From: Isurus oxyrinchus
Taxonomy: Eukaryota
Assembly (NCBI GenBank): GCA_026770705.1
Contig: JANJGN010000053.1
Location: 2,046,001-2,110,000, forward strand
Length of the DNA: 64,000 bases
Direction: 5' to 3'
Part shown: piece after piece, positions 1,801 through 62,769 of the stretch
How the letters are laid out: each line of letters begins with the position of its first letter
How positions within the stretch are numbered: position 1 is the stretch's first letter
Notes under the pieces: model-generated
What the model was told of the DNA's origin: nothing
Database searches by the model: none
Seen by the model: only the letters and a program-made list of their open reading frames with translations
Translations under genes and position numbers: made by a program

Positions 1801-4029
1801 GGCCAACCTGTTTCCGGGTGATGAAATCAGCTCACTTAATAATTTGTGTTAGTTATAGTCACTTAACAAACAAGCGGGTAATTGACCTCGTCAGAGACCC
1901 CTGTCCGCCAATGGGGAAATTTAACAGCTCAGCACCAGAAACTTCGGCAATTAAAACTAATGATCGGAAAGTATCCCCAGAGGCAATGTGTTCTGCGCAT
2001 GCCATTTTTGAATGTTGAATGGGACTTCCCTCCTGAAGAGTGTTGGTCTCTCGGAGCTTCATATCATTCTGGTGCGATCTTGACTCAGCCATTGCAGAAT
2101 GTAAACGTGTTATGGACTGTAATGTACAACTTAAACTAATTGTATTCTTTGTGGATACCTCGTGATGACTTGGCGCTATTATGACTGGCGATGATATTGC
2201 TCGAACGTTAGTAATACTGGACATCTCCGTGTATTTATGCTTTTGCGTCAGTCATCAGTCCTGGTCTTTACCAAAAAAAACAATAATAGTAGGAAAAATT
2301 AGACAATCATCCGTGCAGATTTTAACTTATCATTATTCATCAAAACTCCACTTAAATATTAAGATGCCCTGCTCCAATTATTTTTGTTCTCAAATACAAT
2401 CATAACATGCTGGGAATACTCAGGAGATCTTGCAGCATCAGCGGAGAGTGAATCTTATTTTGTTTTTCAGGCAATGGTCAGCATTGACTTTTCAGTTTCA
2501 GATTTCCAGCACGCAGCAACACTGAGGAAGCCCCTACACGAGCAATAATTGTTGTGTCCGTGCAGAAAATCATTCCAACATTTCCAGCTGTAACACTATA
2601 ATGTTACTGCGGAGGCCTGTACGTAAAGTAATTCGTGATAACATCCCGCAAAGATCGCTGGGGGTCATCCTGTGCCTCAAGGCAATGTTCCACATTGCCT
2701 GAGTTAATATTTTAATCAGCACTCTGGGCAAAATTGGGAAAGCCCCTATTATATGAATGCTCCAATCCTCTTTTTCCACATTAGGAGCATTTTAATGCTT
2801 TGGCGAAATATCATAGCACAAGTACACTTGGGCACAACCAAAAAAAAAATAAGGAAAATGAAAAGATACTTTTAGGTTGTAACTGCGCTTGGAGAATGAA
2901 AGTGTGTCATGACATATCACTGTACAAATTCTATTACGGCAGATAAATCTATTCATCGCTCAAACTTAATGCAGCAGGAACCATTTTATCCTTGAATAAG
3001 CACAGTTTATATTGACGTTTACACCTGATAACTAAACACAAAGCGGAGTCACAAAATGAAAAGTCAAGCAATGGAGAATATTACTGCTTCCAATTGGCGA
3101 TAGATCGATTATGCATCTCCCCAGTTGACAGCGAACAAAACAGTAATAAATCACCTAAGCACAGTTGCCTTATGAAGGACAATGGTCGCGTTCAAGAGAG
3201 GAAATAAATGTCGCTTTTACACTTGAATGCAGATGCAAGGGGAGATGCGCCAATCTGCCAATAGCAATCAATGTTATCGAAGATATAGCGGGCGGGAGCA
3301 CAAAACACACCTGTGTCTCAATCATGACGAATCACTTAAAATGTGGTAAATTTGTTGTAAAGCAGCCGTTTTTGGTATTTGACAGCACTTAAAACAAGGT
3401 CTCTGCTCTCTTTACCTCGCAACCAGGTGGAAAAACACCTTATGTTTAAGAAGCGAGTGGTCACCAGTGCTTTCATTTAAATGATATTTCTTCATTCTAC
3501 CTGCCATAAGTTAAAGCCATTGTGAGTGGCGAGTGTCATCCGAATTTAAATTGCGTTGGCAGAAGTTGTTACTGGATTTACAGCATCGGAGGTGACGCCT
3601 GTAACAATTTCTGCTTCAATATAATTTTCATTGTCAACCCTGCAGTGACGCATTGAGCTCGTAAACGGTGAACTCGTCTTGCACAATTATCGTTGCTCGC
3701 AAAACAGACCACAGAACGAAAGATGACTGGTATTTCACTCCTACCAGGGTTTGTTCCGTAAAACGACGAAGAAATGGGAGGGGGATGGGGGGAGGGAGAA
3801 TCTTCCGTTTCTCTGAAGCATACAGAAAACCATTGGCCGCAGCTGTCCTTACAGATATTTGTAATAGAGCCAGAGGATGCTGGAAATACTCGACTGGCCT
3901 AACAGCTTCTGTGAACAGAGACAGCAGAGTTAACGTTTTCATGTTATTTATACAATAGGGAATAATTTGCTTTATACCTCCACACAATTTAAGACATGAG
4001 CATAATTTCTCCACCCAGATCGTCTAACC

Positions 4030-6184: not shown

Positions 6185-8095
6185 GTTTAACAGGTAGGAG
6201 CAGAAGTCGACGATTCGGCCTATTGAGTCCGCTTCAACAATCCGTGAGATCATAGCTGACCTGATAGCCCTCAATTCCACTTTCGCCTTTTCCCATGTGC
6301 CTTTTCCCCGTGACGCTTGATTCCCTTATTGGCTAAAAATCTGTCTGTTATAGCCGTGAACGTACTCACTGATCCATCCTCTACAGAACTAGGTGATGAA
6401 GGAATTAACAGATTCTCTTCTCTGCTAAGAGTAGAAAGCCCTCCTCATGCCTGTCTTAAAAGGGCGACCACTTACTCTGAAATTATGCCCTCTGGTCCGA
6501 GACGGGCTGAAAGGGGAAACCAACCTTTTAGTCTCTACTCTGACATGCCGCCTCAGAATCTTACATGCTTCAAAAAGGCCGCCTCTCAATCTTCTAAACT
6601 GCAATAAATACAGGCCCAGACTGTCCCACCTCTCCTCATAAGAAAATCCCTCCTTACCCGGCATCAACCTAGTGAATCTTCTCTGGTCTGTGACCAATGT
6701 AATGCACCTTTCATTAGAAAAGAGGACGAAAACTGTTCACTTTTTTCTAGGTGTGGTTTAACTATGTTCTTGTATATCTTTGGTAATACTTCTCTATTTT
6801 TATAATCCATTCGCTTTGAAATAAAGGCCAGCGTTCTGTTTCCCTTCCATAATACCTGCTTCCTGCAGCCCTTGTTTATTAAATAATATCCAGCTTCCCG
6901 ATACGCCCAGCCAAGGTGGATAAGCTCACATTTTCCAGCATTATATTCCATCTGCCAAGATTTTACCTACTAACTTGATCTGCCTTTATCCCTCTGCAGG
7001 CTCTTTGTGTCATCATCCCAACTTGCCTTCGTACCTATTTTTCTGTCAGGCACAAAGTTGACGCTGGTACAATCACTTTCCTTATCCAAGTAATTAATAT
7101 ATTTTGTAAATAATTGTGGCGCCAGAACCAATCCCTGTGGCTAGTTAGAGGCTGCCACCCTAAAAATATGCACCTGTCTCAAACCTTTGTCTTCTATTGG
7201 TTAGCCAATTCTTTATCCATGCTACAGTGCTACCCCCAACACCACGGCTTCTTATTGAGTAGCATTATGTGTGGTACGTTATTGATGGCCTTTTTTTTTT
7301 TGCAATCCTGGCATCGTACATCTGCTGATTTCCTTTATCTACCCTGCTTCTTACCTCCTCAATTATTTCTTATAAATTTGTCTGGCCTGATTTCCCTTTC
7401 ATGAAGCCATGCTGAATGTGCTTGATTATATTATGCATTTCTAAATACTCTGCTATTACATCCTTTGTAACAGACTCTAACATTTTTCCAATAACAGGTG
7501 TTAAGCTAACTGGCCAAATCTCACTTGCTTATGTCTCCCTCCCTTTTAAAATAGGGTGTTGAATTGGTAGTTTTCCAATCCTCTTCGAATTTTCCAGGTT
7601 CTAGGGATTTCTGAAATATTACTACTAGCGCATCCACTCGGCCTTTAATCCCACTGGTTTCCATAGTCCTTTTTCTCTCGTGATAGATATTGTATCTATT
7701 TCTGAATCCACAACCCCACCACCCTTTTTTCCCCTTGATTATTTCTTATTTTTTGAATGATATTAATGTCTTCTTCTGTAAAGACTGATGCGAAGTATTT
7801 ATTCAACTCCTCTGCTGTTTCCTTTTTTCCCGTTATTATTTCCCCAGCCTCGTTCTCTAAGGGGCCTATGTTCACTTTGACTTCTCTATTCCTCCATATA
7901 TGTTTAAATAAGCTCTAGCGATCCGTTTTGACATTACTTGCTGGTCTATGCTCCAATTTTATTTTCTCTCTTTTGTTATTTTTTGGTCAGCTTTGTTTTT
8001 TAAAGCATCTCCATGCCTCTGCTTTCCCACTAATCTTTGCCACATTGTATATATTTTTCTTTCAATTTGATACGATCCACAACTTCCTTGTTTAA
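6185..8095 (-). mobile_element. 5'-truncated CR1 LINE (RT region and 3' tail)
   Basis: ORF pieces MEYNAGKCELIHLG, YKNIVKPHLE, QRRFTRLMPG...YEER...RRLRGGL...RTRGH are CR1 ORF2 C-terminal motifs. Confidence 0.85.
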
Positions 8096-8097
8096 CC

Positions 8098-11000
8098 GTC
8101 GAGCCTGCTCCGTCATTCAATATGATTATGGCTGATCGAACAGTCCAATGCGCTTTACTCAAACTATCCCCACAACCATTTACGTTATTGCAAATCCGAA
8201 ATCTTTCAAACTCCTCCTTAAACATTCTCAATGACTGAGCATCGATGGCCCTCTGGGCCAGATAATTCCAAGAATTTACAATGCTCTGAGAAAATACATT
8301 TCTCCCATCTGGGCCTTAAGTGGCTTCCCTCTTATTTGGAATTGTGTCCCCTGGTTCTAGACTCGAAAGCCAGGGGAAACATCCGAACTACATCGACCCT
8401 GTATATTCCTTTCAGCATTTTGCAGGGTTCATTGAGATCACCTCTCATTCTTCGAAACTCTAGTGGATGCAGGGCCAGTTTCCCCAATCTCTCTTCATAT
8501 GATGATCCCGCCAGCCCCGGAAGATGTTTGGATAATTTCGTTGCACCCTCTGTGGCAATGCCATCCTTTCTGTATAAGGTGACCAAAACTGCCCACAGTA
8601 CCGCAGGGGCAGTCATGCAAAGCTTCAATACATTTGAAGCAATTGTTCACTCCTTCTTTACTCAAACCCTCTGCTGATAAAGGATGACATTCTACTCGCC
8701 TTCTTAATTGTTTGCTGCACCTGTATGTTAGCTTTCAGGGACTTTTGGACAAGAACACGCAGGTACATCTACACTTTCATTCTCTTATCGTTTACGAAAT
8801 AATCTGCACATCTGTTCCTCGTACCAAAATGCATAACCTCAAATGTTTCCGCATTATATTCCATCATCCATGTTCTTGCCTGCAAACTAAGTTTATCCAA
8901 ATCTTTCAGCAGCCGCTTTACATTGTCCTCATGGCACACATTAACCCCTAACTTTGCATCATCCATGAAGTTGGAAATATTACATTTGGCCCCCACATCC
9001 ACATTATTGATATATATTGTGAACAGCTGGGGCCCAAATACCGATCCTTGCAGCATTGAACTAGTCAAAGCCTGCCAATGCGAGATGACCTGTTTATACT
9101 TCCTTCATGTTTTCTGCCTGTTAGTAACCGCTTAGAACATGCCAGTATATTCCCCTCATCCATTGTACTTTAAATTCGCTAACCAACCTCCTGAGGGAGT
9201 CTTTATCAAAAGCCTTCTGAAAGTTGCCCATCGACCCTTCATCAATTGTGTTACTAACATCCTCAAAAAACGCCACCAAGCTCGTCAAATGTAATTCCAC
9301 TTTCGGAAATCCATGCTGACTATCCCCAGTCAGATCATCATTAACCAAGCATCCATTTATCACATCATTCAGAATAGATTCGAACATTTTCACCACTATG
9401 GAGGTAGGGGTTAAAGGCCGGTAGTCCCCTATTTTCTCTCTAACACCCTTCATAAATAGTTAGGTGGCATTTTCTACCTTCCAATATTCCAGAACCATTC
9501 CAGAATCTGTATAATTTTCGAAAATGATCACCAATATATCCATTACCTCTATAGCAACCTTGTTCAACACTTTAGATGCAGAATATCAGGTGCCAGTGAC
9601 TTATCAAATTTCAGTCCCATTAATTTCTTCAATACAACCTTCTACCTTATACTAATATCCTTCAGATCCTCATTCTCCTTCGTCCCTTGGATCTCTAATC
9701 CTGGAAGAATTCCTGCATCCTCCTCAGTGAAAATATACACAAAGCAAATATTTAAATTATTTGCCATTTCTTTATTCCTCATTATGAACCAACCTCGTTC
9801 CTCCCAGAATAGACAAATATTAATCTTAGCCAAATTATTCCTTTCCACATTCCAAACTGAAGATTCTATAGACAATGTTTATGCTTTCTTTTTGCGAAAT
9901 TGCATGCATGTTCTATTTTCCATTACTTCACAAGTATGTTGATCCTCCTTTGCTTTATTCTAAAAACCTCTCTGTCCTCAGGTTCACTACTACTTATGGC
10001 AACTTAATTAGCCTTTTCTTTTAAACATATACAATCCTTAGCTTCCATTGCCAGTCATGGCTGAATGACTTTTTGGGTTCTTGCATCTTGAAGGAATGCA
10101 TATATGCTGTAAGCTATGTAGTAGTTCTTTGAAGACTGTCAATTGTCTATCTTCAGTCGTACGTTTTAATGCATTTTCCCAATCCACCGCAGCCAATTGA
10201 ACCTCATGCCTTCCTAATGTCCTTTATTTAACATTAACATCCTTGTTTCAGAGTGAACTACCTCATTTTCAAACACAATGTAAAGTTCTACCATCTCGTG
10301 ATCACTCGCACCTAAAAGTTCCTTAACACAAATATTATCAATTAGCTAATTCTCATCACATAATACTAAATGTAAAATAACCCGTCCTCTATTCCGCTAC
10401 TTCACATGCTACTCTATAAAACCATCCCTGACACACTCCAGAAATTCACCTTTCAAAACATTCATACTCAGTTGGTTGACCCAATCTATATGCAGATTGA
10501 TGTCAGTGAGGATTACTGTATTGTACTACATGCATCTGTCATCTCCTGATTAATACCATGCCCCACAATGCCACGATTGTTTGGTGGCGGGTAAACTGCT
10601 CCAACCAAAGTCTGCTGCTCTTTGCTGTTTCTTCACTCCACCCAACCAATTCTACACGTTGTTCTTCCGATATGAGATCCTGCCTTATTAATGGCCTGAC
10701 CCCATCCCTTATTATGACTGCACCTCCCACTGCATTTACTTTTTGTCTGTCCTTCCTAAATGCTGAATATCCTTGAATATTCAACTCCGAGTCTTGCTCA
10801 CTCTGCAACCATGTTTCTGTTTTGGCAATTATATCATACCCATTTAGCTCTATTGGTGTCTTTAGATCATCGACATATGTGAATGCTGTGGCCCTTCATT
10901 TCGAATGCCCTTAACTTTTTATGTTGACATAATTCGGGATTCGAAGCATACTAATTCTCAAAGCAATGCTGTTTCTCCTGCCTTCTGGTCTCACTACCAC

Positions 11001-17189: not shown

Positions 17190-18570
17190 TCAATGTTCAG
17201 CACCATTCGTACTCCTCTGGTATTGAAACAGTGCATGTCCAAATAAAGCACGAATTGGACTAAAACAGGTTTGGGCTGGGAAGTGGCAAGCAACATGCAC
17301 GCCACATGTGTGACAGGAAATGACCGTCTTCAACAAGAATCTAACCATGTCTCCTTGACATTCAATAGCATTACCATCAATGATTATCACTATGTCAACA
17401 TCTGAAGGTTACCACTGACCGGAATCAGATCTGACCTAGCCATATAAGCACTTTGACTAAAAGAGCAGATCAAAGGTTAGAAACAGCGCGACAAGTAACT
17501 CACCTCCCGACTCCCTAACGCCTGTTCACTATCTGCAAGGCACCAGTCAGGGGTGTAATGGAATACAGCCACCTCCAAATGCCTGTGCGGGTGAGGCTCC
17601 CACAGTACTCGTGAATCTTGACACAGCCCAGGACAACGCAGCCCGCTTGATTGGCACAACATCCACAAACATTCACTCCCTCCACCACCGGCGAACTATA
17701 GCAGCATTGCACACCATCTAGTAGATGCACTACTGGAGTTCATTAAGGCTTCTTCGAAAGCACATTCCATGCACTCAACCACTACCATCTGGAAGGCATG
17801 TGCAACAGATAGATGGGAAGACTGCCATCTGGAAGTGCTCCTCTCTCAGCATCCTGAGTTGGAAATATATTGCCGCTCCTTCACTGTCACTGTGTCAAAA
17901 TCCTGGAACTCGCTCCCTGACAGCACTGTGAGTGCACCAACACCGCATGGACCACAGCGGCTCATGAAGGCAGCTCACCACCACCTTCTCAAGGGCTATG
18001 ATTGATAGGCAAGAAATCCTGCCCCAACCAGTGAAGGGCACATCTACAAGGCACAACTCAGGGATGTGCTGGAATACTTCCGCCATCCCCTACTTGTCTG
18101 TTTGGGTGAGGCTCCCACAGCACTGGTGAATCTTGATGCAGTCCAGGACAAGGCAGCCCCACTTGACTGGCACCACATTCATAAGCATTCACTCCCCCAA
18201 CCACTCACGAAAAGTAGCAGCATTACATAAAATCTACATGATGCACAGCAGGAATTCAGCAAGGCTCCTTCGACAGCGCCTTCCTAACCCATGACCACTG
18301 CCATCTGTAAGGACAAGGGAAGCAGATATATGCAAACACCACCACCTGGAAGTTCCCATCCCTCACCATTCTGACTTGGAAATATATCGCCGTTCCTTCA
18401 CTGCTGCTGTGTCAAAATCCTGGATCTCGCTATCTGACAGCACTGTGGATGTACCTACACCACTGTGACTGCAGCGGCTCATGAAGGCAGCTCACCACCA
18501 CCTTCTCAAGGGCACTGAGTGATGGGCAAGAAATCCTGCCCCAGCCAATGAAGGCCAAATCTCATGAAGT
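17190..18570 (+). mobile_element. LINE 3' end with its last ~520 bp tandemly duplicated
   Basis: Two consecutive copies (~17535-18040 and ~18045-18570), each ending gcagctcaccaccaccttctcaagggc... Confidence 0.85.
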
Positions 18571-18589: not shown

Positions 18590-20330
18590 TGCCTGGCAAT
18601 GTTCCGTTTGTGGTCAACGTTACCAAAATGTTAATAGTAAGGCATTCAGCAAAAGCAATGCCATTGAATGTCATCAACCGATGGTTTGGTTTTATCTTGC
18701 TGGAGGTGGTGATTGTCTGGCATTTGTGTGGTACAAATTTCACATGTCATTTGTCAGCTAAAGCCTGAATGTAGTTCACATCTTGCTCGACTTTGACATG
18801 GACTGCTAAAGCAGCTGAGAATTCGTGAATGGTGCTGAACATTGTGAAATGTTCAACCACTCCTTACCTGATAATGGAAGGAAGGTCATTGATGAAGCAC
18901 CTGAGGGCGAGGGCACTACCCTGAGGAACTCCTTCAGTGATATACTGGAACTGAGGTGACTGACCTCCAACAACCAGAACCGTCTTCCTTTGTGCTAAGT
19001 GTGAGTCCAACCAGTAGCAAGTTTTCCCCTGATTCCCACTGAATCCAGTTTTGTTCGCGCTCCATGATGCCTCACTCGGTTAAATGCAGCTTTGATATCC
19101 ATGATGGCCATTCTTACTTCGCCTTGGTAGTTTAGCTGTGTTGCCCATGTTTGAACCAAGGCTGACATGACTTCAGGAGCTGAATGGCCGGAGCCGAACC
19201 ACACTGGACATCGGTGATCAGGTTATTCCTAAGCAAGTGCCACTTGACAGCACTGTTGATTGCCTCTCCAGCATTTTACTGCTGATGGGGAGTAGACTGA
19301 TGTGACGGTAATCGGCTGGGTTGGAATTGCCCTCTTTATTCTGTGGACAGAGCAGAGTTGGGTAATCTTCCAGATTGCCGGGTGGATCCAAATTTTGTTC
19401 CTCTACTGGAACCACGTTTTATACTGCATTCATGAGATGTGGGTGTCATTGGCCAGGCATTTAATTCCCGTCAACAATAGCCATTTTTAAGCAATTTCAG
19501 ATGGCATTCAAGAGTCAACCATATTGCTGTGGGGCAGTATTCACATACAGGCGATACCAGGATTGTAGATGTACTTATTTAAGGGCATTGGTAAACAATA
19601 TGTGTTTTGAAAACAATGGAAGATAGTATCATGTTCACCATTACTGAGAGTAGCATGTAATTCCAGATTTATATATTCCGTAATTAAATTCAAATTGCAC
19701 AAGGTGGGATCTGAACCCAACTGCCCTTAGAATTTCTGTGGGATTCTGGATCACGAGATCTTCAAACTAATGACCAGAACATAGTTCCCACCTGGCTTGA
19801 AAGAGTTGCAGCAAGTTCTACAACACAAGTCTTCAGGACTACTGCCAGAATATTGCCAGGGACCATAGTATTTATCGTTTCCAATGCCTCCATGCATCTC
19901 TTGTTATCACGCAGTGTTTCTAGGCAGCTAATCATGGTGCTCGACATTATAATCCACCAGTTTGTGCCCTTTTAAAGTCCAGTGCATTCTCCAAGTTGTT
20001 TTCAACATGGAGGAGTATTGGTTCGTCAACTGAGTGGGAGAGTGTTTGGGGTTTAGGTGGGTGGACCTTACGTAGCAATTAGCAGGAGAGGACCATGCAA
20101 ATGTTTGACCTGATTTCATGAGACCGCATGAGGTTCAATGTTGAGGGCTTCCAGGGCAGCTCACTCCCGAGAGTATATCACTGTGCCGCTATCTCGTCTC
20201 GTTCTGCCCTGCTGATGGACAGGTCAAACTCAGGGTCTGTAGCAGTGGTTTCTGGGACATTATTCCTAAGTTAACATTCCGTGAGGATGACTCTGTCAGG
20301 CTGCTGCTTGAGTAGCCTGCAAGACCAAGC
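18590..20330 (-). mobile_element. Internally deleted LINE (EN to RT) with a nested tRNA-derived SINE at ~19430-19790
   Basis: ORFs SNPADYRHISLLPISSKMLE and VRMAIMDIKAAFNRVRHHG. The inserted segment matches the head/body of 24570-24860 and ends in a decayed LINE-type 3' tail. Confidence 0.8.
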
Positions 20331-22210: not shown

Positions 22211-22679
22211 GCAGGAGCATAGTGATAGCAGCTATTTTTTGGGCGGATTTTCCACATTGCTGGGTCGATGCAAGTGTTGTCACTGCATTGGAACAGATTG
22301 GCTCGGGAAACAGCACGAGATTTCAATATTATTGCTGCGTTCTTTTCAGGGTCCAAATCCTTTGCAGTATCCAGTGCCTTCAGCTGTTTCTTGATTTCAC
22401 GCTATGTGATTTGACCTGGCAGAAGACTGGCATCTATGGTAATGTTGACCCCCGGAGGAAACGAGGTGTATCATGCAATCCACAATTCTGGCCGAAGATT
22501 ATTGCAAATACTTCAGTCTTATCATTAGCACTGATGTGCTGGGATCAGTCAGCACTGAGGATATTCCCCAATGTGCCAGTAGCAATCTCTGTGTATCCTC
22601 ATAAATCCTACTTTCATCCACCTCACTGTTTACAACATTTCACTGATCTGTCTCCGTCCTTCCAATTCCTACTGCTACC

Positions 22680-24110
22680 CTCTTTAACTGGCCTAGCCTA
22701 CATGTGACTTCAGGCTCAAACAGTGTTGTAGACTTTTAAATGCTCTCTTAAATGGCTGGCAAGACACTCAGTTGTATCAAACTGCTACAAAGTCACAGAA
22801 AAATCACTGAAATAAGAGGAACCCACCCACCCCCTGCACCCCCGCCCAGCATCGAACTAGTTATGGGGAACAAAAGCCCTGTCGACAATGCAAATTCCTC
22901 CTTACTAACATCTTCAGGCTAGTGCCAAAATTTGAAGAGATACCTCGCAGACCACTCAAGCAAAAGCCTGACATCATCATCCTCACGGAATCATATCTTC
23001 CCGAGAGTGTCATAGACACCACCACCTTGAGATGGTGACACAGCTGGGAGTGATCAACACGGCTGTGGCATCCATGATTTGCCATGGTGCCATGCTAAAC
23101 ATGGGAAAGGGAACGGCATGTGATTAACACGCAATGTCACCCTGTCAGCTGATGAAGCAGTGCTCCTCCATGTTGTAAAACCACTGGGAGGAAGCACTGA
23201 GGGAGGAAAGGGCCTAGAATGTACTCTGTGTTGAAGGACATCAATGTCCATCACCAAGAGTGATTCGGTAACATCACTACTGATCAAGATGCCGGGCCCT
23301 AAAGGACATTGCAGCCAGTCTGGGTCTGCAGAAGGTTAGGGTTAGGGAACCAAAAAGAGGGAGAAACACGCTTGACCTCATTCTCATCAACCTGGCTCCC
23401 GCAGATGCATCTGACCATGAGACTATCAGCAGGACTGGCCAACGCATAGTTGAAATGGAGACAAAGCTCCGACTTCATTTTGAGGATAGATTACATTGTG
23501 TTGTGTTGCACGTCCTTCACACTAAATGGGATAGATTTTGTGCAGAACGAGAAAATCAAGATGGGGCATCCATGAGGCGCTTTGGGCCACCAGCAGCAGC
23601 AAAATTGTACTCGATCACAATCTGCAAACTTATGGCCTGTTGCATCTCCCGCTCTACCATTATAATCAACAAAGGTGATCAACCTAGTTTCAAAGAAGAA
23701 TTCAGGAAGACATGTCAGCAGCAAAACCAGGAATTCCTAAAAAAATAGTTGTCAACCTGGCAAATCTATAGCAAATGACTGCTTGTGCATCAAACAGCAT
23801 AAGCAGCATGTCTTAGAGAGAGCGAAGCGATCGCACTGCCAAAGGCTCAGTTCTTAGCTGTGCGGTATTGCCACACCTAATTGTGCATGGTGGTGGACAA
23901 TTAAGCAACTCACTGGAAGAGGAAGCTTCACAAACATCCCCAACCCCAATAATGGTGGAGCCGAAAACATCACTTCAAAAGATAAGGCAGAAGCATTTGC
24001 TACAACACTCAGCCAGAAGTGCCGAGTGTATGATACATCTTGGACTCTACCAGCGGTCTCAAGGATCGCAAGTGCCATTCTTCAGCCGTTCATATTCACA
24101 GAGATAGGTA
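22680..24110 (+). mobile_element. 5' part of the SINE-headed LINE (SINE body plus endonuclease region)
   Basis: SINE-body sequence (ggcctagcctacatgtgact...cactcagttgtatcaaactgctacaaag) runs into ctccttactaacatc...cctgacatcatcatcctcacggaatcata (EN motifs). Confidence 0.8.
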
Positions 24111-24569
24111 GTGTGGTAAGGAATGTAGATGGACGCATTCAGCGACATGGAAATAAAATTTTATCACCTGCTTAATAATAAGTTTGCAATGTGGAATTCA
24201 ATGTCAGAAAATGTGGAGAACCCTGGGACTAAAATGGATGGCCATTGTTAATTGGGAATAACCATGGAACAGTCAGTCAGATATCTGTACACTGACTGGT
24301 GTCTCTCAGACCCTCTTTCTCAGGGAGGTAACTGTATTCTGTATGGTGTCTCACAATCCCTGTCTCTCTCCCAGGGCGATATCTCTACAGTGACTGTTGT
24401 CTCTCCATTCACTCTCTCTAATAACTTTATCACTAGCATTCTCAGAACTTCACAAATGGATATATTATCAGTTGGGAAAAGGAAAACTGACACAGAGTTT
24501 AAAGTTACAGAGTCACACACAGTACCCTACAATCCCATTTCTGTCTCAATCTGGTTGTTCCAACCAGGG

Positions 24570-27500
24570 GACCTGATGGTGTAGTGGTATTATCAGAGGA
24601 CTAGTAATCCAGAAACCAAGGGTAATGTTCTGGTGACCCGGGTGTGAATTCCGCCATTACAGATGGTAGAATCTGAATCCTAAAAAGGAAAATTGGAATT
24701 AAAAAGTCTAAAATGGCTATTATACCATTACTGATTGTTGTAAAATGTCCCTTTAGGAAAGTAAATCTGCTATCCTTACCTGTTCAGACCTACAGGTGCC
24801 TCCAATCCCACAACAATGTGACAATTAAACGGCTTCTGTAACGTCCATGCAAGCCACTCAACGTTAACAAACAACTACAAAGCCACAAAAAGGAATGCAA
24901 CTGAATGCACAACAGTGCATCGACTTCAGCACCGGAAACAACAATGGCAATCACCACCCTGTCGACCATGCATAGTCCTCCTTACTAATATCTGGAGGCT
25001 AGTGCCAAGATTGGGAGAGCTGTATTACAGTCTAGTCGTTACAAGACCTGTCATAGTCATGCTAACGGAATCATACCTTACAGATCATTTTCCAGACACC
25101 ACCATCACCATCACTGGCTATGTCCTGTCTCACGGGCAGGACAGATCCAGCAGAAGTGGTGGTAAAGTGGTAAACAGTCGGGAGGAAGTTGTCTTGGGAG
25201 TCCTCATCATGGACTCTGGACTCCAAGAAGTCTCATGGTATTAGGTGAAACATGGGCAAGGGAACATCCTGCTGACTATCGGATGCCACCCTTCCTCAGC
25301 TGATGAATCAGTGCTCCTTCAAGTTGAACATGACTTGGAGGATGCAGTGATGGTGGAAAGGGAAAAGAATGTACTCTGGTTGGGGGATTTCATTGTTCAT
25401 CACCAAGAGTGACTCGGTAGCACCAGTACTGACCAAGCTGTATGTATCATAAATGAGATAGCTGCTAGGCTAGATCAAGGGCACATGGTGATGGAACCAA
25501 CAAGAGGGAAAAATATACTTGATCTCATTCTCACCAACCTGCCTGTCAAGGATGCATCTTTTCATGTCAGTATCAGTAGGAGTGATCAACACAGAGTCAT
25601 TGTGGAGACGAAGTCCCACATTCACAATGAAAATACAGTCCATCATGCTGTATGGTCCTGTCACCGTGCTAAATGGGGTAGATTTCGAATAGATCTAGCA
25701 AGTCACGTCTGGGAATCAATGAGGCACTGCAGGCTATGAACATTAGCAGAACTGCACTCGAAAATAATCTGCAACTCATGGGCCAGCATATTCCTCACTC
25801 TACCATTAACATCAATCCAGGGGATCAACACAGGTTCAATGAAGAGAGCAGGAAGGAAGGCCAGGAGCAGCACAAAGCATAGCTGAAAATAAGCTGTCAA
25901 TCAAGTGAAGCTATAACACAAGACTACCTTTGTGCCAAACATCATAAGCAGCAAGTGATGCACAGGTCTAAGGGATCCCACAACCAAAGGATCAGGTCTA
26001 AGCCCTGCTACATCCAGTCATGCGTGGTGAAGAGCAAATAAACAACTCACTGGAGGAGGAGGCGTCACAAGTATTCCCATCCTCAATGATGGAGGGCACC
26101 GATCGTCAGTACAATATACAAGGCTGATTTATGTGCCACAATCTTCAGCCAGAGGTTCTGAATGGATGATCCATCTCAGCCGCATCTGGATTTCCCCAGA
26201 AGTACAGATGCCAGTTTTCAGCCAATTCGATTCATGACACATGATATCAAGCGTCGCTGGAAGGAACTGGATACTGCAAATGCTATGTCCCTGGCAATAT
26301 TCAGGCCATTATAATGACGATGCGTGGTCCTAAGCCTGACACGCCCCTAGCCAAGATGTTCCAGTACAGCTACAATATTGGCAACTACCCGGCTATGTGA
26401 AAAATTGCCCAGGTACGACCTGTACAAACAAATCAGTGCAAATTCTACCCGGACAATTACCGTTCCATCATTCTACTCTCCATCATCAGTATAGAAATGG
26501 AAGGGTTCATAAACAGTGCTATCATGTAGCATGGGTTAGCAAGAACCTGCTCACTGATGTGTAATTTGGCTTCTCGCAAGTGCCACACAGTTCCTGATTT
26601 CATTACAGCCTTGGTTCAAATATGGTCAAAAGAGCTGAGCTCCCAATGTGAGGTAGGAGTGGCTGCCCTTGACATCAAGGAAAAATTTGACCGAACAGGG
26701 CATTAACGAGCCATAGCAAAAATGGAGTCAGTGGGTGTAAGGGGGAAATATCTCCTCTGGTTGGAGTCATAACTAGCACGATGGGAGATGAATGTGGTTG
26801 TTGGAGATCAGTCATCTCAGCTGCAGAACATCACTCCAGTAGTTCCTCAGATTAGTGTCCTGGGCCCAACCATCTTCAGCTTCATTGGCCTTCCTTCCAT
26901 CATAAGATCGGAAGCAGAAACATTCGCTAATTATTGCACAATATTCAGCACACTTCGCGATTCCTCAGACACTGAAACAGTATTCAAATGCAACAAGACA
27001 TGGACAATTATCCAGGCTTGGGCAAAAAAGTGGCAAGTAACATTCTTACCACAGACATATCAGGCAATGATCATCTCCAACAAGTGGTAATATAACCATC
27101 GCCTGTTGATGTTAAAAGGCATGACCATCAGTGAATCCACCCCTTTCAACATCTTCGAGGTTACCATTAAGCAGAAACTGAACTGGACTAGCAATGTAAA
27201 TAATGTGAATACAAAAGCAAGCCAGATGCTAGGGATCGTGCGAAGAATAAATCACCTTCTGACTCCCCAAAGTCTGTCCACCATCTGTGATGTAAAAGTC
27301 AGAAGCATGATGGAATAGTGACCACTTGCCTGGATAAATACAGTTCCCACAACGCTGACGAAGCTGGACACCGTCCAGGACAAAGCATCACATCCATAAA
27401 CATTCACAACATTCACCACCAATGCATAGCTGCAGCTGCATGCACAATCTACAAGATACAATGCAGGAATTCACCAAGGTTTGTGACAGAACAACTTCAA

Positions 27501-27800
27501 ACTCCTTTACCATTACCAGCTAGAAGGACAAGGGCAGCAGAGAGATGGGAACACCAGCACTTGGATGCTACTGCCCAAGTCATTCACCATTCTGACTTTG
27601 AAATTTACTGCTGTTCCCTAACTGTTGCTGGGTCAAAATACTGAAAATCCTTTCCTTACAGCATTGTGTCTGCACCTAGAACACATGGACTGCAACGGTT
27701 CAGTAAGGCAGCTCCCCACCAACTTGTCAAGGGCTACTGTGGATGGGCATATAAATGCTGGCATAGCCAGCGATGACAACATCCTGTGAATGACTGAAGA
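24570..27800 (+). mobile_element. Apparently full-length ~3.2 kb LINE with a tRNA-derived head, no ORF1 and a decayed EN-RT ORF
   Basis: A box TGGTGTAGTGG (24577-24587) and B-box-like GGTGTGAATTC (24641-24651). EN from ~24960: LLTNIWRL...VIVMLTESYL...GYVLSHGQDR, EPTRGKNILDLILTN, SDQH. RT: VPQISVLGPTIF, FANYCT. Tail hairpin GCTGGCataGCCAGC. Confidence 0.85.
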
Positions 27801-27889
27801 ATGAGTCCCTTTTTTCTGCTTCCTTTTCTGCTTTTCTCATTCCAAGGGATGCAGAATGTTAATGGCAGTTGCAGACGATTGTTTCAAAC

Positions 27890-28410
27890 AAGGCCACATC
27901 TGCCTGGAACACTTCGTGCTCAATTAGGTCGCTTCCTTGGATGAGAGCAGCTTCAGCAACGCTTAAGTTCTTGACAGCATGCACGACACGTTATCGCACT
28001 TTTTTCATACTGCATCCACAAATATCCACTTACTCATCCACCAACGGACTTTGGCGACAGTGCATAACATTTAGAAGGTGCAGTACAGGAATTCATGACT
28101 ACTCATCAGCAACACCTTCCATAACTACCACCCCTGCCAATTAGAAGGACAAGGTCGGCAGACTCATGGATACACCACAAACTGGATGTTCCCCTCCATG
28201 TCACTCACATCTTGACTTGGAAATGTATAGCTATTCCGTCACTGCCCCTGGTTTAAACACTTGGAATTCACCCTGTAAGCACTGCGTGTGTAACTAGGCT
28301 ATATGGTCTGCAGCTCTTCAAGACCACCACCTTCTCAAGGGCAATTATGGATGGGCATTAAATCGTGTCCTTGCTGACAACACTCACATCCCTTGGAATA
28401 ATTAAGAATA
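27890..28410 (+). mobile_element. LINE 3' fragment
   Basis: Ends accaccttctcaagggcaattatggatgggcattaaat. Confidence 0.75.
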
Positions 28411-29189
28411 TATATCACCTGCTGCCCCTTTCAGCAATCCCCAGAAGCTGTCGTGAAAGCAGACCATTTGTTTAAGTTAAAATGTATAATTATTGTACTT
28501 GATAATAATTCTAATTGTAACACAATGGGTTTCAGTGGATAACTATATAACAGAACTCAGCGTGCTGGAGAAATTGATTCCTGGACCAGGACACTCTAGG
28601 AAACTCAAAGCACCTGTTGAAAAAACCCAAGAGTTTGTAATGAGAGGAGAACATGTATTTTTTGAGTGAATGTCGTTCAGTTGGTCTTTGCATAGTAAAC
28701 GGATGATGAATATATATTTATTGAAGTTTGACTGTCTAACGTTGACTACAACGTGTTGTCTAGCAGCTACAGTATGAGGGCAATGACTGTCAGACCCCAC
28801 TATAGGCTGAAGGCTCCAGCAAGCAAGATGGGTTACTGAAGGGTACAATTCAAAGCCTAAAGTGGGAGAAGGAAGAATTGCACACTCAGTGCAAAGAGAA
28901 GAGAGGCATCCTTTACATATAGTTTGCGACGGGCAGGGGTTGGGGTGGCAGACTTTCTCAAGAGACAGGGATCTTAACGAACACATTTGATCGTCGATCT
29001 GACTGCAGTGGTTAGGCACTTTGCTTCCAAGTGTACTGGTTTGGACGTTAAGGTGTAGTACACCGTATTGTTATTTTTCCCTCTACAGTGTCCCCGTCAA
29101 AGACTCTCATGACAGGTGCAGGCACAGCACGGGGTTAGAATCAGACTAAATATTTCTCTGCAATTTATTTCCATCTAAATCACACCACC

Positions 29190-30360
29190 TGTTGAAATTT
29201 ATATTAGGTTCCTAAATCTGGAATTTAACGCTCGTGACAATAGTGACCATGAGACCTTTACCGAATCGACTAATTGCAGACGACAGGCTGGGCTGACCAA
29301 GTCCCAAAGATCTTGGCTGCTAAACTGGATCTGAAGTAGGCGTTGAGGAAACCAACAAGAGGGAAGCGCATACTTGACCTCTCCTCAACAACCTGTGTGT
29401 CCAGATGAATCTGTCCATGACGGTATCGCTAGGAGCGACCACAGCACAACACTTGTGGAGACAATTTACCCTTTTCACGTTGAGGATCGCCTCTATCATT
29501 TCGTGTGCCTCTGCTCCATGCTAAATTGGATACATTTCAAACAGATCTAGCAACTAAAAACTGGGCAACAATGAGGTGCTGTAGGCAGCAGCAACAGGAT
29601 TGTAATTAACCACATCTGGTAACCTCACTTTCGACATACGCTCTACTTTACCATGACCACCAAACCAAGGGATTAACCCAGGTTAAATGAAGGGTAAAGG
29701 GAGGCATGTCAAGAGCAATACCAGGCAGACAAAAAATGAGGAGACAACCTGGTGAAGTTACAACACAGGACTACTTGTGTGTGAAAAATATAAACAGCAA
29801 ACATTAGACAGAGCTAAGCGATCCCCGAACCAACTGATCAGGCATAATTCTTCAGACCTCCAAGACACGTTCGTGAATGTTGGTAGACAATTAAACAACT
29901 CAATGGAGGAACAGGCTCCACAAATGATGGAGGAGCCCAGTACATCAGTGCAAAAGATAATGCTGAAGCATTCGAAACTGTCGTCAGCTAGGAGTGACGA
30001 ATGGATGATCCATCTCGGCTTCATTCGGAGGCCCCCAGCATCACAGATGCCAGTCTTCAGCCAATTCACTTTGCTCTACGTGATATGAAGAACCGTCTGA
30101 AGTACTGCATATTGCGAATGGTAAGGCTGCTGACAATATTTAGGCATTGACACTGAAGACTGGTTCTCTGAAACTCAAAGCACCCCCAGGCAAGCTGTTC
30201 CAGTGCAGCTACAACGCTGGCTTCTACCCAGCAATGTGGATACCTGTCCAGTTATGCCCTGTACACAAAAAGCAGGGCAAATATGGTGAGGACAGTTGCC
30301 GTCCCATCAGTCTACTCTCAATCATCAGTAAAGTAATGTAAGGAGTCATCAACAATGCTG
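29190..30360 (+). mobile_element. Internally deleted SINE-headed LINE copy
   Basis: SINE body (aaatctggaatt...gtgaccatga) joined to the EN C-terminus (ccaacaagagggaag...acttgacctc) and CPVHKKQGK...RPISLLSIISKVM. Confidence 0.7.
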
Positions 30361-40261: not shown

Positions 40262-40397
40262 NNNNNNNNNNNNNNNNNNNNNNNNNNNNNNNNNNNNNNN
40301 NNNNNNNNNNNNNNNNNNNNNNNNNNNNNNNNNNNNNNNNNNNNNNNNNNNNNNNNNNNNNNNNNNNNNNNNNNNNNNNNNNNNNNNNNNNNNNNNN
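40262..40397. other. Assembly gap (136 N)
   Basis: Run of N. Confidence 1.
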
Positions 40398-41070: not shown

Positions 41071-41319
41071 ACTTGGGGAGTGGTGGGGCTTTCTGTGTTG
41101 TCGGCTCGGAAAACACAGATCTGACCAATTCCCAGCTTTTGAAAACCTGTACCACCCTCCTAGCACGATGACTGCCACATTTCATTCTCAGAGAGACGTG
41201 GAGGGATAAGGATGGGATTTCCGACTCCCGTTTGGGTGTGGGCACGGGATTGGTCCCAGGAGAACTCGGATGTGGATATTCGAATTTTTTCGTGGGATGT
41301 GACTTTCGCTCGAAATCCT

Positions 41320-41750
41320 ACATTTGTTGTCCTTCGGTAATTGTCGTTGAACTGAGTGGCTTACCAAGCCATTTCACAGGTCACCTAAGATTCATCCACA
41401 TTGCCCGGGGTGTGGAGTCACTTATAATCCACAACAGGCATAGGGGGCATACTTCGTTCCTTAAAAGAGATTTGTGTACCGATGGGTTTTTACAACAATT
41501 GATGATAGTCTCGTGGAGCCATTATTGAGGCTAGTTCTGAATTCCAACCTCTCGGAAAAAGAGTTATACAGTCTCTGGAAGTTAATCCTGTTTCTCTCTC
41601 CACAGATGTTGACAGGCATGCTGAGGTCTCCCACATTTTCAGTTTTCATTTCAATTCAAGATTTATTAACTGAATTTTATTTGCACCAAGTGCTATGGTT
41701 GGATGTAAACCAATGTCCCCGGGGCATGAGCCTGCGCTTCCGGGTTCTGT
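41320..41750 (-). mobile_element. tRNA-derived SINE with a small nested insertion
   Basis: Reverse complement of the SINE head/body at 24570-24860, here ending ...ccactcagttcaa plus a tail instead of continuing into EN. Confidence 0.65.
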
Positions 41751-42409
41751 GTCTCCAGTTGAAGGATTCTGATCTTTGCAGTGTGAGAACTTACTGTTCA
41801 TGTCACTGATGACCGAAGCATTGTTGCCCTGTAAGAAGTCACCTATTAAGAACATTTTGCTTGGTGTACTCTTTAGCAATTGTTGTGCCCACTGTTCAAT
41901 TCCAATGTTGTCCATCCATTCTATCCTCTGTATACGCTGTTGTAACAATAGTTTAATTCTTGTCCTTAAAGTACACAGACTTTTTAAAAAAAAGCATTAT
42001 GTTTCAGCTTGCACAGATCTGTTTGTGACCACAGGAGAAAATTCCAACTGATTCATTCCTCAATCACAGCTCAGAACCACTAACACCCACGACACCTATC
42101 TAAATCTATTCCCCTTCAGACGAGGCAGCACGCTGAACACTCCCACCTTTATCCCCAGAAAGACCACAAGCCAGTTCAGGAAAGCTGCTCGAGGGCCACG
42201 AGAACTGATCTGTATTGGTGACGTGGGACTCGGCAAGTCGGCCTGCCACTTGTCAGGCAATGCTGAGGCCAAAGAGCCTGTGCCATGAAAACCGTTTTGC
42301 CATATTGCACATAAATAGCAGCAACTCTCCTCACTAACAGTACATCCCATTAGGCTAATGACGGGGATACACTGAGTACCTCACATCTTGAGTCATGTAC
42401 TACTCCAGA

Positions 42410-46740: not shown

Positions 46741-47289
46741 ACCGCACATTCCATCACTGTGCTGATTATTGGGAGATGGTGGACGGTGTGGTAATTGGAT
46801 TGGATTTGTCTTGCTTTTTGTGTATGCAACAAATCTTGGTAATTTCCCACATTGATGGGCAGATATCAGTATTGGATCTGCAATGGTTTTTTATTCTGCA
46901 TTTATGCAGTGCAGATGTCACTGGCCAGGAGTTTGATGGCAATCCATAATTTTCATTTAAAGGCAATTTCAGGCAATATTCAAGTGTCAACCACAATGTT
47001 CTTGATCTTGAGCCACATGTACGTCAGGCCAGGTAAGGGCAGCAGATTTCATTCCCTTAAAGACATTCATGAACGTATGGCAATTAACATTGGTCTCACT
47101 GGATTATTTCCGTGTGCACTGAACATTAGCCTAGAACTCTGAAAGCAGCGACATTAGCCTCCCACAGCCAGTGGGATACTGTGTACAGCCAGTCCCCAAA
47201 GAGGAAAAACTAAGGAAAGCCAGACTGATGTTATTTCCAGGGAATTGACAAGGATCGACTGTCAGACTCAGCAAGATGAGGTACAGGGG

Positions 47290-49779: not shown

Positions 49780-52430
49780 GGCAATTCAGCAGCCGAGCTG
49801 AGCTGAGGTGTTGATGTGTGATATTGCTATGGAGCTAGCTAAAACTATTTTCTGAACTTGAGCAGAGCTGAGAGTATATGCACAGCGCTCTCTGAGTGCT
49901 ACTTCAGTGTACTGACTGTGAAGAGACAAGTTTGGTGAGGGTCTGAGATCAGTTAAGGCGGAAGTATCAATAAATTCAGGAAAAAATAACACAATTAAGA
50001 TGGCAGGAAGCTAAATTCGTCTCTACTGCAGCATGTCGGCATTCTTGGAGCTCATTGCAATCTATTACACCACATTGGCAGTAAGTGTCTGCGGCTTGAG
50101 CAGCTTTGGTTCAGGTTAAATTGAGGCGATCAGCATTTTGACACAGCAGGGAAGTGGGAGTTACGTGGACACTTTACTCAAGAAAGCAGTGTGTCTCAGG
50201 TCATCATTTGGTCAGGGACTGGAAGTTGTGACTGCAAGCCAGGCAGGTAATGGGATTAGGAAGCTAGGAGCGAAGGAGCATCAGCCCATAACATTGAGCA
50301 AGAAGTTTTTGTTTTTTTTACAACTTGTATGGACAAGAGTGAGGGCTGTATTATGGACGAGCAGACTGACCATGTGCCATGATACACGAAGCTATCCAAG
50401 TGAGGGGAGCTAAAAGGAATGCAGTCCTTGTAGAGAACAGTATAGTCAGGAGGAAAGGTACTGTTCTCTGCAACCAAGAACGAGGGTCCAGTGGTCTGTG
50501 TTGCCCACCCTGTGCTAGGATTTGTGATATTGCGTTGGGTTAGAGAGAAACTTGTAATGGTCTTTGTATGTACCAATGGCATAGGTAAGTGGTTGTGCAT
50601 TGGGAATTTGAGGAGCTCAGTTCCAAATTTTAAATCAAGCAGAACATCAAATGCAATAATTATGCATTATTGTCTGAACTATGTGCAAATTGCATAGGGC
50701 TAAATATGATGAGAAGATGAATGTGTGCTTCAAAGGCTGGTGAGAGAAGTGGTTTCCGGTTTGCTGGGCACTAGCAACAGTATTCGGGAATAAAGGGGGC
50801 TGTACCTTTAGGGTAAGCTTCGCCTGAACTGTGCCGGGGCCAATATTCTGGCGAACAGTATAATTCAGCAAGTAGAGGGGGCTTTAAACTACATAAAGTG
50901 ATGAAGTGGTCATGTCGGGGAAGTTAACCAAATTGAAGTGAGCTGACAAGGCAACTGATCAGATAGCATTAAAGTTATTGGTAATTAGAGTATCGCAGGA
51001 AGGGAAAGTGATTATTAACTTAAGAAAGGGGCAGGTTTTAGAATAATATTTAAAATAATTAATTAAGGGCTCCGTATCAGATTGATTGCAGCATCCTCAA
51101 TATAACAGTGGAAAGTAGCAAACGTATGAAAGAGGGGAGAGCAAAAACAACAAACTACTTTTGAGAATAACATTAGTAGCAGGGAAAATGCTATAATCTA
51201 TTATAAAGTATGCGATAACAGGACAAATAGAGTTTTGCATGATTTGGAAGAATTCACATGGATTTTTGAAAGGGAAATTATTCTTAACAGACCTGTTGGT
51301 GTTTCTCTGAGTCTATAGCTAGCGGAATAGATATAGGGGTGAGCGATGAATGTTCTACATTTGGGTTTTTAGAAAGCTTTTTGTGACACCACACACGAGG
51401 TCAGTAAACATGCTTAGAGCACATGGGATTCTGGTTAATATGCTGGCATGGATTGTGAACTTATTAACAGGCAGAAATCGGAGAGTATGAATAAATGGGT
51501 CAGCTCCAGGTTGGCAGGCAGTGACTAGCAGGTACTGCAAAGATCAGTGTGTTGGCCCCAGCTATTCACAATATATATCGATGATTTAATTGTGTGTTTT
51601 GAATGTAATATTTACAACTGTGCTGATCATGGAAAACTAGGTGGAAGTGTGAGTTGTGAGGAGGAGACAAATGTGCATCAAAGATATTTGGAGAGGCTAA
51701 ACGTGTAGGTAAAAAAAAAACAATGCAAATGTACTACAAGGTGGAGAAATATTATATTATCCACTTTGGTTGAAAAAAAAACAGAAATGCAAATCATTCC
51801 TTAACTGGTAAGAGGATGGACAGCGTTGGATATCAAAGGGACTTAGGGTACAATCTGCAGCTGCAGCCCCCGTAATCAATGAAGAGGGGTCATGGCATAC
51901 TGGAATTCATTACAAGGGGAATTCAGCATAGAGGTAAAGATATCTTACAGCAATGATATAGAGCCTTGGTGAAACAATACCTAGTTTATTGTTTGCAGCT
52001 TTGTTTTCTGCACCTGAAAAAAAGTATGCTTGCTATAGAGGGAGTGTAACATTGTTTCCACAAACCAATTCCTGGGATGTAGGAATTCTCTAATGAGGAA
52101 AGGTGAAATATCTTGGAATTCAATCCTCTTGCTCAACAGTGGAGGTGCAGGAAGGATGTTTCCCCTGGCTGGGTGTTCCAGAGCCAGGAAACATAAGCAC
52201 ATGAAAACAAATGAGGCAACTATTTAGGGCTGAGATGAAGAGGACTTTCTTCACTCAGAGAGGGTGATTCTTTGGAATTGTCTACCCCACGTGGCTGTTG
52301 AGGCCCAGATGCTGACCATGTCGAAGAATGGAATCGATAGATTTCAAAAATTAAAATTGTCAAGGGATACAGGGTTGCGCAGGAAAATGGTTTTGAACTA
52401 GAGGATCGGCCATGGCCTACACCTATTCGT
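49780..52430 (+). mobile_element. CR1 LINE with ORF1 remnants and a large ORF2 internal deletion
   Basis: ORF1 start atggcagga near 50000, esterase remnant MVCVAHP...VCTNGIGK, RT remnants 51150-52300, and a 3' tail. Confidence 0.75.
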
Positions 52431-52703
52431 GTTTCTTACATTCTTAAATGATGGAAGTGGTAGTGGACATTTCAGGGAAGGAGATAATATGGGGTTGCAG
52501 TTCAGCTCAGTGTGGAATGGAGCATGGAACTGCATCAGATATCAGCCGGGGGTGGGGCGTGAGCGTGTGGAGATTGGATATGGGACCGATTTAGTGACTG
52601 GAACCGAACAGAATGGTTTCAACCTCTCGAAAAGTTAAATGGCAAAGAGATTACTGCAGTTCAACATTGTTTATAGAATAATTAATTCGATAAAGGATCT
52701 TAC

Positions 52704-53154
52704 GCGGGACACCAAGAATTGCCAGGATGGGATAGTAACCTGCTTGAATAACAATAAGCGTGCATTCGATCTGCGATGCTAAAGGCATCCAATCTAGTGT
52801 AAGCCAGTAAAGACTCTGGGATAAACCTCTGCCCTTTGTTGAAGCATTCCAATCTATTTTCCTCATATTCAGATCCATTGCAGGAACATTCAAATCTATT
52901 GCTCTGAAATTCTCATCCATTGTTGTAACATTCCTGTCTATTGTTTTGAGGTTCGGATCCATTTTTGTATAATTATCATTTAAAGTTCTCAGATACTGGT
53001 CACTCCGCTCCCTCTCTCTGGAGGTGCTAATGCCTGTTCGAGTCGGAGGTGATGCTCCTGCTGAAAGAATTGGCGAAAGCATTGAAAGGAATCTCTTATT
53101 ATTAGAAGAGGGAAAGCCTCCAGCGACACAGTTAGGATCCATTGAGACTGGCAT
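52704..53154 (-). CDS. Exon 1 of a long-N-terminus GPR139-like GPCR (open frame; the true start may be an internal Met such as 52962)
   Basis: 150 codons ending IQAGYYPILAILGVP plus one base (C), then GTAAG (52703-52699). Phase-compatible with the exon at 38230 (GVP-L-NVITIVIL). Heptad repeats carry N-X-S/T sequons. Confidence 0.8.
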
Positions 53155-62759: not shown

Positions 62760-62769
62760 GTGCAATGAG

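Follow-up and report, generated by a model that had tools for sequence, protein, structure and literature searches.

The DNA analysed here, a stretch of 64,000 nucleotides from Isurus oxyrinchus (hereafter the window), contains a LINE that appears to begin like a SINE, with a tRNA-like segment followed by a non-coding body. This raises the question of whether the SINE-like start is part of the LINE or an accident of this locus, and, if it is part, what it does.

Architecture of the element

Self-comparison of the window reveals one complete member of the family (copy 1) and 10 further fragments, lying between 5.1 and 30.4 kb, which are 66–73% identical to it. The features of copy 1 and its 3′ flank are as follows.

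24567..27803, + strand: copy 1, full-length but decayed LINE assigned to elasmobranch Zenon, 3237 bp (window self-comparison, tblastn and reads)
24567..24660, + strand: tRNA-like head, with A box, anticodon-like hairpin, long variable-arm-like segment and degraded B box
24661..24862, + strand: non-coding body, common to the short copies (nhmmer and pairwise shuffle tests)
24863..24974, + strand: LINE-only linker, a basic leader open in the endonuclease frame; also present in protein P0153
24975..25733, + strand: APE-type endonuclease, 2 stops (PF14529, E 0.01, below cut-off; tblastn with P0005, E 3e-22, and P0007, E 3e-21)
26278..27390, + strand: reverse transcriptase (RT) region, frameshifted and with 7 stops (PF00078 under the cut-off at E 5e-4; tblastn with complete APE–RT proteins, E 1e-38 to 1e-44)
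27729..27803, + strand: 3′ tail, common to the short copies, with a decayed A-rich end (shuffle tests)
27810..27815, + strand: T6 run in the 3′ flank, the first strong Pol III terminator, possibly there by chance (terminator scan)

For the Pfam searches copy 1 was read with X at stop codons, as an endonuclease block (24951–25733) and an RT block (26296–27390). Searched against 1.84 billion representative proteins, the RT block gave 43 matches at E ≤ 1e-30; the best full-length relatives are 935–983 residues long, and P0005 and P0007 carry both APE and RVT_1 domains. In tblastn, the alignments of two full-length relatives, P0005 and P0011, begin at 24975 with the first endonuclease motif of these proteins and reach 27390. 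Since this motif aligns at about 24975, the endonuclease starts 408 bp into copy 1, close to the 390 bp estimated in the first-pass annotation, which had placed A- and B-box-like motifs and about 300 bp of SINE body ahead of it. The longest stop-free run 5′ of the endonuclease is 54 codons; as that annotation had claimed, there is no room for ORF1, and the element has a single ORF with an APE endonuclease and an RT. Copy 1 is dead, with nine stops across the endonuclease and RT blocks in addition to frameshifts. No target site duplication was found at its flanks.

The protein search returned no long relatives of the copy 1 endonuclease, and no intact full-length elasmobranch ORF was present among the proteins retrieved. 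The closest named matches of relative P0003 are from Mobula birostris and Scyliorhinus torazame, and the ESM Atlas matches are generic APE–RT clusters only. Scans of metagenomes with a DNA pattern and with P0156, a scan of GTDB, and a scan of viral sequences with P0155 each gave no match; 35 matches of the DNA pattern to viral contigs were dismissed as chance, blastn/tblastn support being found in 0/35.

The head contains an A-box-like TGGTGTAGTGG at 24577–24587, which we take to differ from the A-box consensus at one position, an anticodon-like hairpin at 24598–24610 with the loop CTAGTAA, and a B-box-like GGTGTGAATTC at 24641–24651 with three mismatches. The distance from A box to B box is 64 nt, longer than in a standard tRNA. 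The same loose scan finds 24 A/B box pairs across the window, so the motifs are weak on their own. ARAGORN predicts no tRNA in the window, and the Rfam tRNA model gives the head 14.1 bits (E 4.9), below its gathering score of 29. The description of the head as tRNA-derived thus holds for the A/B-box layout, which suggests such an origin, and finds no backing in a significant tRNA match. At gathering level Rfam gave no matches, and no ribozyme family in the element. Folding z-scores are −0.01 for the head, −0.44 for the tail and −2.23 for the body.

Two identities for the body were considered and dropped on comparison by eye rather than by computed alignment: a Deu domain of the SacSINE1 kind (it is unlike EbuSINE2 and SINE2-2_CM) and, likewise by eye, the 66-bp Meta domain (it is unlike BivaMeta-SINE1 and BivaMD-SINE1). 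Four short body motifs are absent from two published sequence supplements.

The head is common to elasmobranch Zenon elements

A body motif from the window matches the consensus table in the supplement of PMC13343379 (Stuart et al. 2026), a study which reports Zenon elements from five elasmobranchs, the coelacanth and hagfish; none of them has ORF1, and all end in a poly-A tail. By sequence comparison we assign copy 1 to elasmobranch Zenon (CR1-Zenon), a single-ORF LINE of the CR1 group. Its 3237 bp compare with 3244–3314 for the five main Zenon consensuses and 2886–3314 characters for all consensuses. From the A box on, copy 1 and CarCar_Zenon-1 are identical at 67/79 nucleotides, ungapped and counted by eye, above the roughly 80% looked for in a member of the family; the B box of CarCar_Zenon-1 is a perfect GGTTCGAATCC, and over the first 400 nt the two are colinear, also by eye, through body and linker.

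The same head and body start all seven elasmobranch Zenon consensuses, which come from five species, both sharks and a ray, and all seven run from the body into the same linker; neither head nor body is found in the three hagfish and coelacanth Zenon consensuses (each compared by eye over the first 400 characters given in the supplement). Six B-box-type 10-mers gave six matches within the first 400 characters of a sheet of at least 910 rows, and all of these are elasmobranch Zenon rows; the B box is intact in 6/7 elasmobranch consensuses and degraded in that of the ray, HypSab_Zenon-1. P0153, which comes from an independent source and is 58% identical, passes from the body end through the linker into the endonuclease within one protein. 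Because every elasmobranch consensus starts with it, the head is a property of the family and not a local chimera, and the head–endonuclease junction is fixed in all seven. We looked for an ORF1, for a different 5′ UTR and for a junction confined to this locus, and found none of the three.

That the other vertebrate Zenons do not have the head suggests a possible gain, but the nearest relatives of elasmobranch Zenon are crustacean elements and not the hagfish and coelacanth Zenon (PMC13343379). Table S3 of the same study lists intact ORF2s as 0/2313, 1/1419, 3/612, 0/59, 1/294 and 0/396 for six of the seven elasmobranch families; its entry for the seventh is garbled. The family and its lack of ORF1 are therefore already published, and the latter, as a property of all Zenon elements, is not a novelty here. 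The head lies in these public data without comment: in its available form the main text of PMC13343379 has no mention of tRNA, promoter, polymerase or Pol III, and one of SINE, in the title of a reference; neither the head nor a partner SINE is described there. In the open literature searched, mostly as titles and the starts of abstracts, with Repbase, Dfam and subscription journals outside its scope, neither a tRNA head on a shark Zenon nor a Pol III-transcribed LINE is described.

Further junction-bearing copies and short derivatives

Two other copies of the LINE in the window carry a junction with the endonuclease, and three short elements carry the body without it.

22676..24087, + strand: copy 2, starting inside the body and with the body–linker–endonuclease junction (nhmmer and self-comparison)
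29185..30360, + strand: copy 3, a post-head segment joined to the endonuclease interior (self-comparison and shuffle test)
19430..19790, − strand: short element with head, body and LINE tail (nhmmer E 3e-5, shuffle tests)
41290..41762, − strand: short element with partial head, body and LINE tail (nhmmer E 1e-8, shuffle tests)
46900..47097, − strand: third short element, with body and LINE tail, the head lost (nhmmer E 1e-6, shuffle tests)

The junction annotated at 22680–22990 is confirmed at 22676–22908, where nhmmer, with the first 425 bp of copy 1 as the query for body copies, gives E 3e-12 and the identity to copy 1 is 73%. No relationship is seen between the 5′ flanks of copies 1 and 2 (29/500 shuffles reach the score). 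In copy 3 the junction corresponds to about position 25429 of copy 1, with about 700 bp absent. The claim of a deleted junction near 29190 fares less evenly: the 5′ part of this copy (29185–29256) matches the short copy at 19480–19790 with a score reached by 0/500 shuffles, whilst its score against copy 1 is reached by 104/500, and neither of two nhmmer searches detects it. As one of the two pairwise tests supports it and nhmmer misses it, this is the weakest of the junction items.

For the short copies annotated at 19430–19790 and 41320–41750, with a body and a LINE-like tail, nhmmer and the shuffle tests agree, and the element at 46900–47097 is an addition to them. These copies are non-coding and have one structure, in which the terminal ~70 nt of the LINE follow the body directly. 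Their tails match the LINE 3′ end at 28300–28420 with scores reached by 0/500 shuffles for each of the three, and match the tail of copy 1 with scores reached by 0, 15 and 1 of 500 (19430, 41290 and 46900 copies, respectively). The 3′ ends of the short copies are A-rich, and that of copy 1 is a decayed A-rich end. The copy at 41290–41762 has an insertion of ~100 bp in its body, which is moreover ~17 nt longer than the bodies of the other two, such that the body-to-tail junction occurs in two variants ~17 nt apart; the copy at 19430–19790 sits between two same-strand pieces of a Zenon LINE copy. The short non-coding element consists of the Zenon 5′ end and, attached to it, the final ~70 nt of the LINE, and the SINE-like elements and the LINE accordingly share both ends, as first proposed. 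Both derivations put forward for this, capture of a SINE by the LINE as its promoter and internal deletion of the LINE to yield the SINE, would leave shared ends of this kind.

Representation in raw reads

Raw reads with the same species label (1.9 Gb) were mapped at 80% likeness and depth was summed per bin. On copy 1 the depth is ~1044 over the head, 252–328 over the body, 1357–2583 over the linker and endonuclease start, up to ~12,000 over the RT and 1704 in the tail bin, compared with ~76 in the 5′ flank and ~8 in the 3′ flank. The Zenon family, linker included, is thus highly repeated, since these depths far exceed those of the flanks. The body bins are the lowest of the element interior, which may reflect deletions in copy 1. 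Read depth alone does not prove linkage of head and ORF.

Contigs with 28–37 differences span the flanks of copy 1, suggesting that a paralogous locus exists, and the single contig which bridges body and endonuclease may derive from such a paralogous copy. The 15 joints shown, out of 652 in the reads, do not include the one from body to tail, and the reads mark no sharp start site. Contigs from two runs guessed to be RNA also map to the element; they cannot show transcription.

Pol III terminators are depleted on the sense strand

The shortest sequences that work as Pol III terminators in assays of mammalian SINEs are TTTT (T4) and TVTTT (PMC8466645). Both were counted on the sense strand of 10,353 bp of Zenon family fragments, 11 decayed fragments being used for the ancestral state. 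T4 runs number 10 against 21.4 expected (P 0.002) and TVTTT 8 against 21.3 (0/500 shuffles as low); for either motif combined the count is 16 against 37.8, whereas the corresponding A and C motifs occur about as often as expected. In a control LINE family from the window, which we take from its motifs to be CR1-type, T4 occurs 10 times against 10.9 expected and TVTTT 20 times against 10.9; this control is one family and 3.6 kb (3,573 bp).

Nine of the ten T4 runs can be aligned, and all nine are absent at that site in the other copies, whilst the tenth is unaligned; the run at 25560 is broken by a G in 92% of reads. For TVTTT, five of the eight can be compared, all five being private to one copy, and three cannot. 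The one T4 remaining in the majority string is a tie artefact. The ancestral element, as inferred from these decayed fragments, would have had no internal T4 or TVTTT on its sense strand. By eye, in the first 400 nt given in the supplement, T4 is visible in none of the seven elasmobranch consensuses and several times in the hagfish and coelacanth starts.

Part of the deficit could be due to codon bias, because T3 runs are depleted too (12 against 29.4 expected in the majority string) and phenylalanine in the RT block is mostly TTC (12:1). Tested in its present state against a synonymous-codon null, copy 1 has 2 where 5.4 are expected (P 0.06; zero would give P 0.0025), and under dinucleotide shuffles it has three T4 runs against 4.1 expected. 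The deficit is supportive of Pol III transcription and is not decisive.

A possible Pol III promoter within a LINE

We consider it somewhat probable, at about 55%, that the head is a working internal Pol III promoter of the Zenon LINE, and in that case Zenon may be transcribed by a polymerase to which LINEs are not usually assigned. TFIIIC and Pol III would start at nucleotide 1 and would read 3.2 kb through a sense strand purged of T4 and TVTTT, with transcription ending at a flanking T-run (in copy 1, T6 at 27810). RT would prime on the common 3′ tail, and a full-length copy would then carry its own promoter. Selection against internal terminators would be direct, because a transcript stopped early, without the 3′ tail, leaves no copies. 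An internal deletion that keeps head and tail would at once be a working SINE. The 64-nt A-to-B spacing, the non-significant Rfam tRNA score and the degraded HypSab B box count against a Pol III promoter. The processivity of Pol III is regarded as poor, and SINEs are 100–700 bp (PMC10886601).

Protein would be made by cap-independent initiation on the Pol III RNA, or from occasional Pol II read-through transcripts. Ahead of the endonuclease motif, copy 1 offers no in-frame AUG that could be used, the sole one preceding a stop. An ATG kept in 6/7 consensuses corresponds to position 24895 in the linker of copy 1 and is, by eye, out of frame both there and in HypSab. IRES-type initiation has been proposed for the LINEs R2 and L1Tc, whose RNAs are expected to be uncapped (PMC3383444).

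The principal competing account, which we think rather unlikely, accepts the head as fixed and treats it as a passive or secondary 5′ UTR, with Pol II transcripts that either begin at a body promoter or result from read-through, a T deficit owed to codon bias, and boxes that look intact in the consensuses because the abundant short SINE copies, to which they are necessary, have this region in common with the LINE. It accords with the general view of LINEs as Pol II-transcribed (PMC10886601, PMC5786205), and with T3 runs and TTT codons that are low as well and a synonymous null at P 0.06. The deficit is nevertheless specific to T motifs, includes TVTTT and is absent from the control LINE, and the T4-free starts of the seven elasmobranch consensuses stand against the several T4 runs of the hagfish and coelacanth starts. 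The 5′ ends of the consensuses were made by automatic extension (PMC13343379) and could have been shaped by SINE copies; copy 1 itself, however, bears the whole head. A division of labour is less probable still: Pol III would make only a template RNA, a 'giant SINE', and protein would be supplied in trans from capped Pol II read-through of copies within host transcription units. The rarity of intact ORFs among long copies (0–3 per family) fits this scheme, as do the short derivatives, whose mobilisation means that activity in trans exists, and the AUG situation described above, in which the upstream in-frame AUG is of no use in copy 1 and the conserved ATG lies in another frame in both copy 1 and HypSab. 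Capped read-through RNA would meet the same lack of an AUG, though, and long-term retention of the ORF is easier with a cis preference.

The remaining two accounts place the head outside the element or the junction outside the family. Target-specific LINEs exist, and the short copy at 19430–19790 lies amid LINE pieces, as it might if Zenon targeted a fixed site, the body end of SINEs already in place. We regard this as very improbable: no remnant of a SINE tail follows the 3′ end of copy 1, eight body-less fragments (5′-truncated copies) lie outside SINEs, and the consensuses of five species share a start point and pass smoothly from body to linker. A local chimera multiplied by segmental duplication might be suspected from three junction-bearing copies within 8 kb and from the contigs that hint at a paralogous locus, yet the copies are 66–73% alike, as dispersed fragments are, and have no common flank; the same junction in the consensuses of five species refutes it.

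Taken with its further parts, the preferred reading, of a head working as Pol III promoter, extends to a more tentative picture, in which shark and ray Zenon would be an autonomous coding element with a promoter of tRNA origin, transcribed along its whole length by Pol III, translated cap-independently, free of terminators over 3.2 kb since before the shark–ray split, and giving birth to SINEs by internal deletion.

Comparison with known systems

PMC10886601 gives as a rule that LINEs are transcribed by Pol II and SINEs by Pol III. If the preferred reading is true, that rule would be broken by a LINE which numbers thousands of long copies in each genome, has a SINE promoter and avoids terminators. 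Zenon would also be a natural vertebrate case of a long Pol III transcript with coding capacity, whose mode of translation would need explaining. SINEs could moreover arise along this route with no template switching.

The nearest systems are the elasmobranch Zenon families themselves (CarCar_Zenon-1, RhiTyp_Zenon-1, ScyCan_Zenon-1, SquAca_Zenon-1 to -3 and HypSab_Zenon-1), which have the structure of copy 1; only copy 1 is decayed. The hagfish and coelacanth Zenon (EptBur_Zenon-1/-2 and LatCha_Zenon-1, which is CR1-5_LCh) are also ORF1-less, but within their first 400 characters have T-rich starts without the A/B-box head. Amongst tRNA-headed SINEs of cartilaginous fish, SacSINE1 (Deu, L2 tail), the CmiSINEs (CORE, L2 tail) and HE1 (V-SINE) have been described (PMC5499810, PMC4824008); the short element here has a Zenon tail in contrast to the L2-type tails reported for SacSINE1 and the CmiSINEs, and a body that by eye does not resemble the Deu and Meta sequences compared. 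In bivalves, Zenon is known to share its tail with SINEs (PMC11481361).

Small-RNA-derived Pol III promoters on retroelements other than SINEs, as proposed here for the Zenon head, are found in the TRIMp3 elements Cassandra, Helenus and Ajax, which, unlike Zenon, are non-coding, of LTR type and 311–1263 bp long (PMC10886601). R2 and L1Tc are coding non-LTR elements with RNA expected to be uncapped; they rely either on an HDV-like ribozyme in a transcript shared with the host or on a Pol II promoter (PMC3383444), whereas the Zenon copy has no ribozyme match.

A parallel in structure is with the bipartite-LINE SINEs (Bov-tA, AfroSINE, SINE2_Gav and CoeSINE4), which, as here, have a 5′ part and a 3′ tail in common with a LINE (PMC5786205). 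In those the tRNA head was added to the deleted derivative and the LINE is without it, whereas here an autonomous LINE of the CR1 group bears the head. In the same survey the LINEs contributing to SINEs in this way are only RTE and Vingi, with bipartite derivatives from RTE, Ingi, Vingi and R2. RTE-1_DAn and elements related to it are LINEs with a tRNA-like sequence that matches many SINE2 families, in a different clade from Zenon (PMC5786205); as a possible precedent they lower any claim of uniqueness. A LINE whose 5′ UTR is the body of a SINE was predicted by Kojima in 2018, and found there only for RTE and Vingi (PMC5786205); elasmobranch Zenon has this arrangement in a LINE of the CR1 group.

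Repeats of the window

Between 5100 and 30400, 11 fragments of the Zenon family lie within 25 kb, with both strands represented. The short element at 19430-19790 (-), a SINE-like copy composed of the head, body and LINE tail of Zenon, is flanked by two same-strand pieces of one LINE copy of its own family. These pieces and the other repeats and sequence features are:

6200-9600 (-) and 51400-56050, pieces of a LINE family other than Zenon
17531-18045 and 18042-18562, Zenon tail in local tandem duplication (79%)
20300-19844 and 19412-18658, LINE pieces on the same strand flanking the short element
22247-22546, Zenon piece, inverted
24250-24375, CT-rich minisatellite with units of 30-47 bp
40262-40397, assembly gap of 136 N inside an AC-rich stretch
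62756-64000, AT-rich array of tandem repeats (period 72 bp), reaching the window end

The second LINE family, whose fragments served as the control, is presumably of CR1 type, judging by its RT motif. A 205-codon frame at 60711-61328 (+) is probably an LTR-retrotransposon remnant; its match to RT_RNaseH_2 (E 1e-6) falls just under the cut-off.

Flanks of the full-length copy

The CT-rich minisatellite lies immediately upstream of copy 1, the decayed full-length Zenon LINE, and is very abundant among the reads (depth ~4800). Read contigs covering both flanks of this copy carry 37 differences (24397-24739) and 28 differences (27738-28000), which suggests that the entire locus has a paralogue.

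Motifs in the linker and behind the head

An ATG in the linker (24895-24897) is present in copy 1 and in six of the seven published elasmobranch Zenon consensuses (PMC13343379); it does not share the endonuclease frame, as checked for copy 1 and the ray consensus HypSab, and may start a short overlapping uORF. Directly 3′ of the tRNA-like head, at about nt 115 of the element (window ~24680), 6/7 of these consensuses carry, by eye, an AATAAA, of which copy 1 retains a decayed version. Such a motif behind the head is awkward for a Pol II mRNA but harmless for Pol III.
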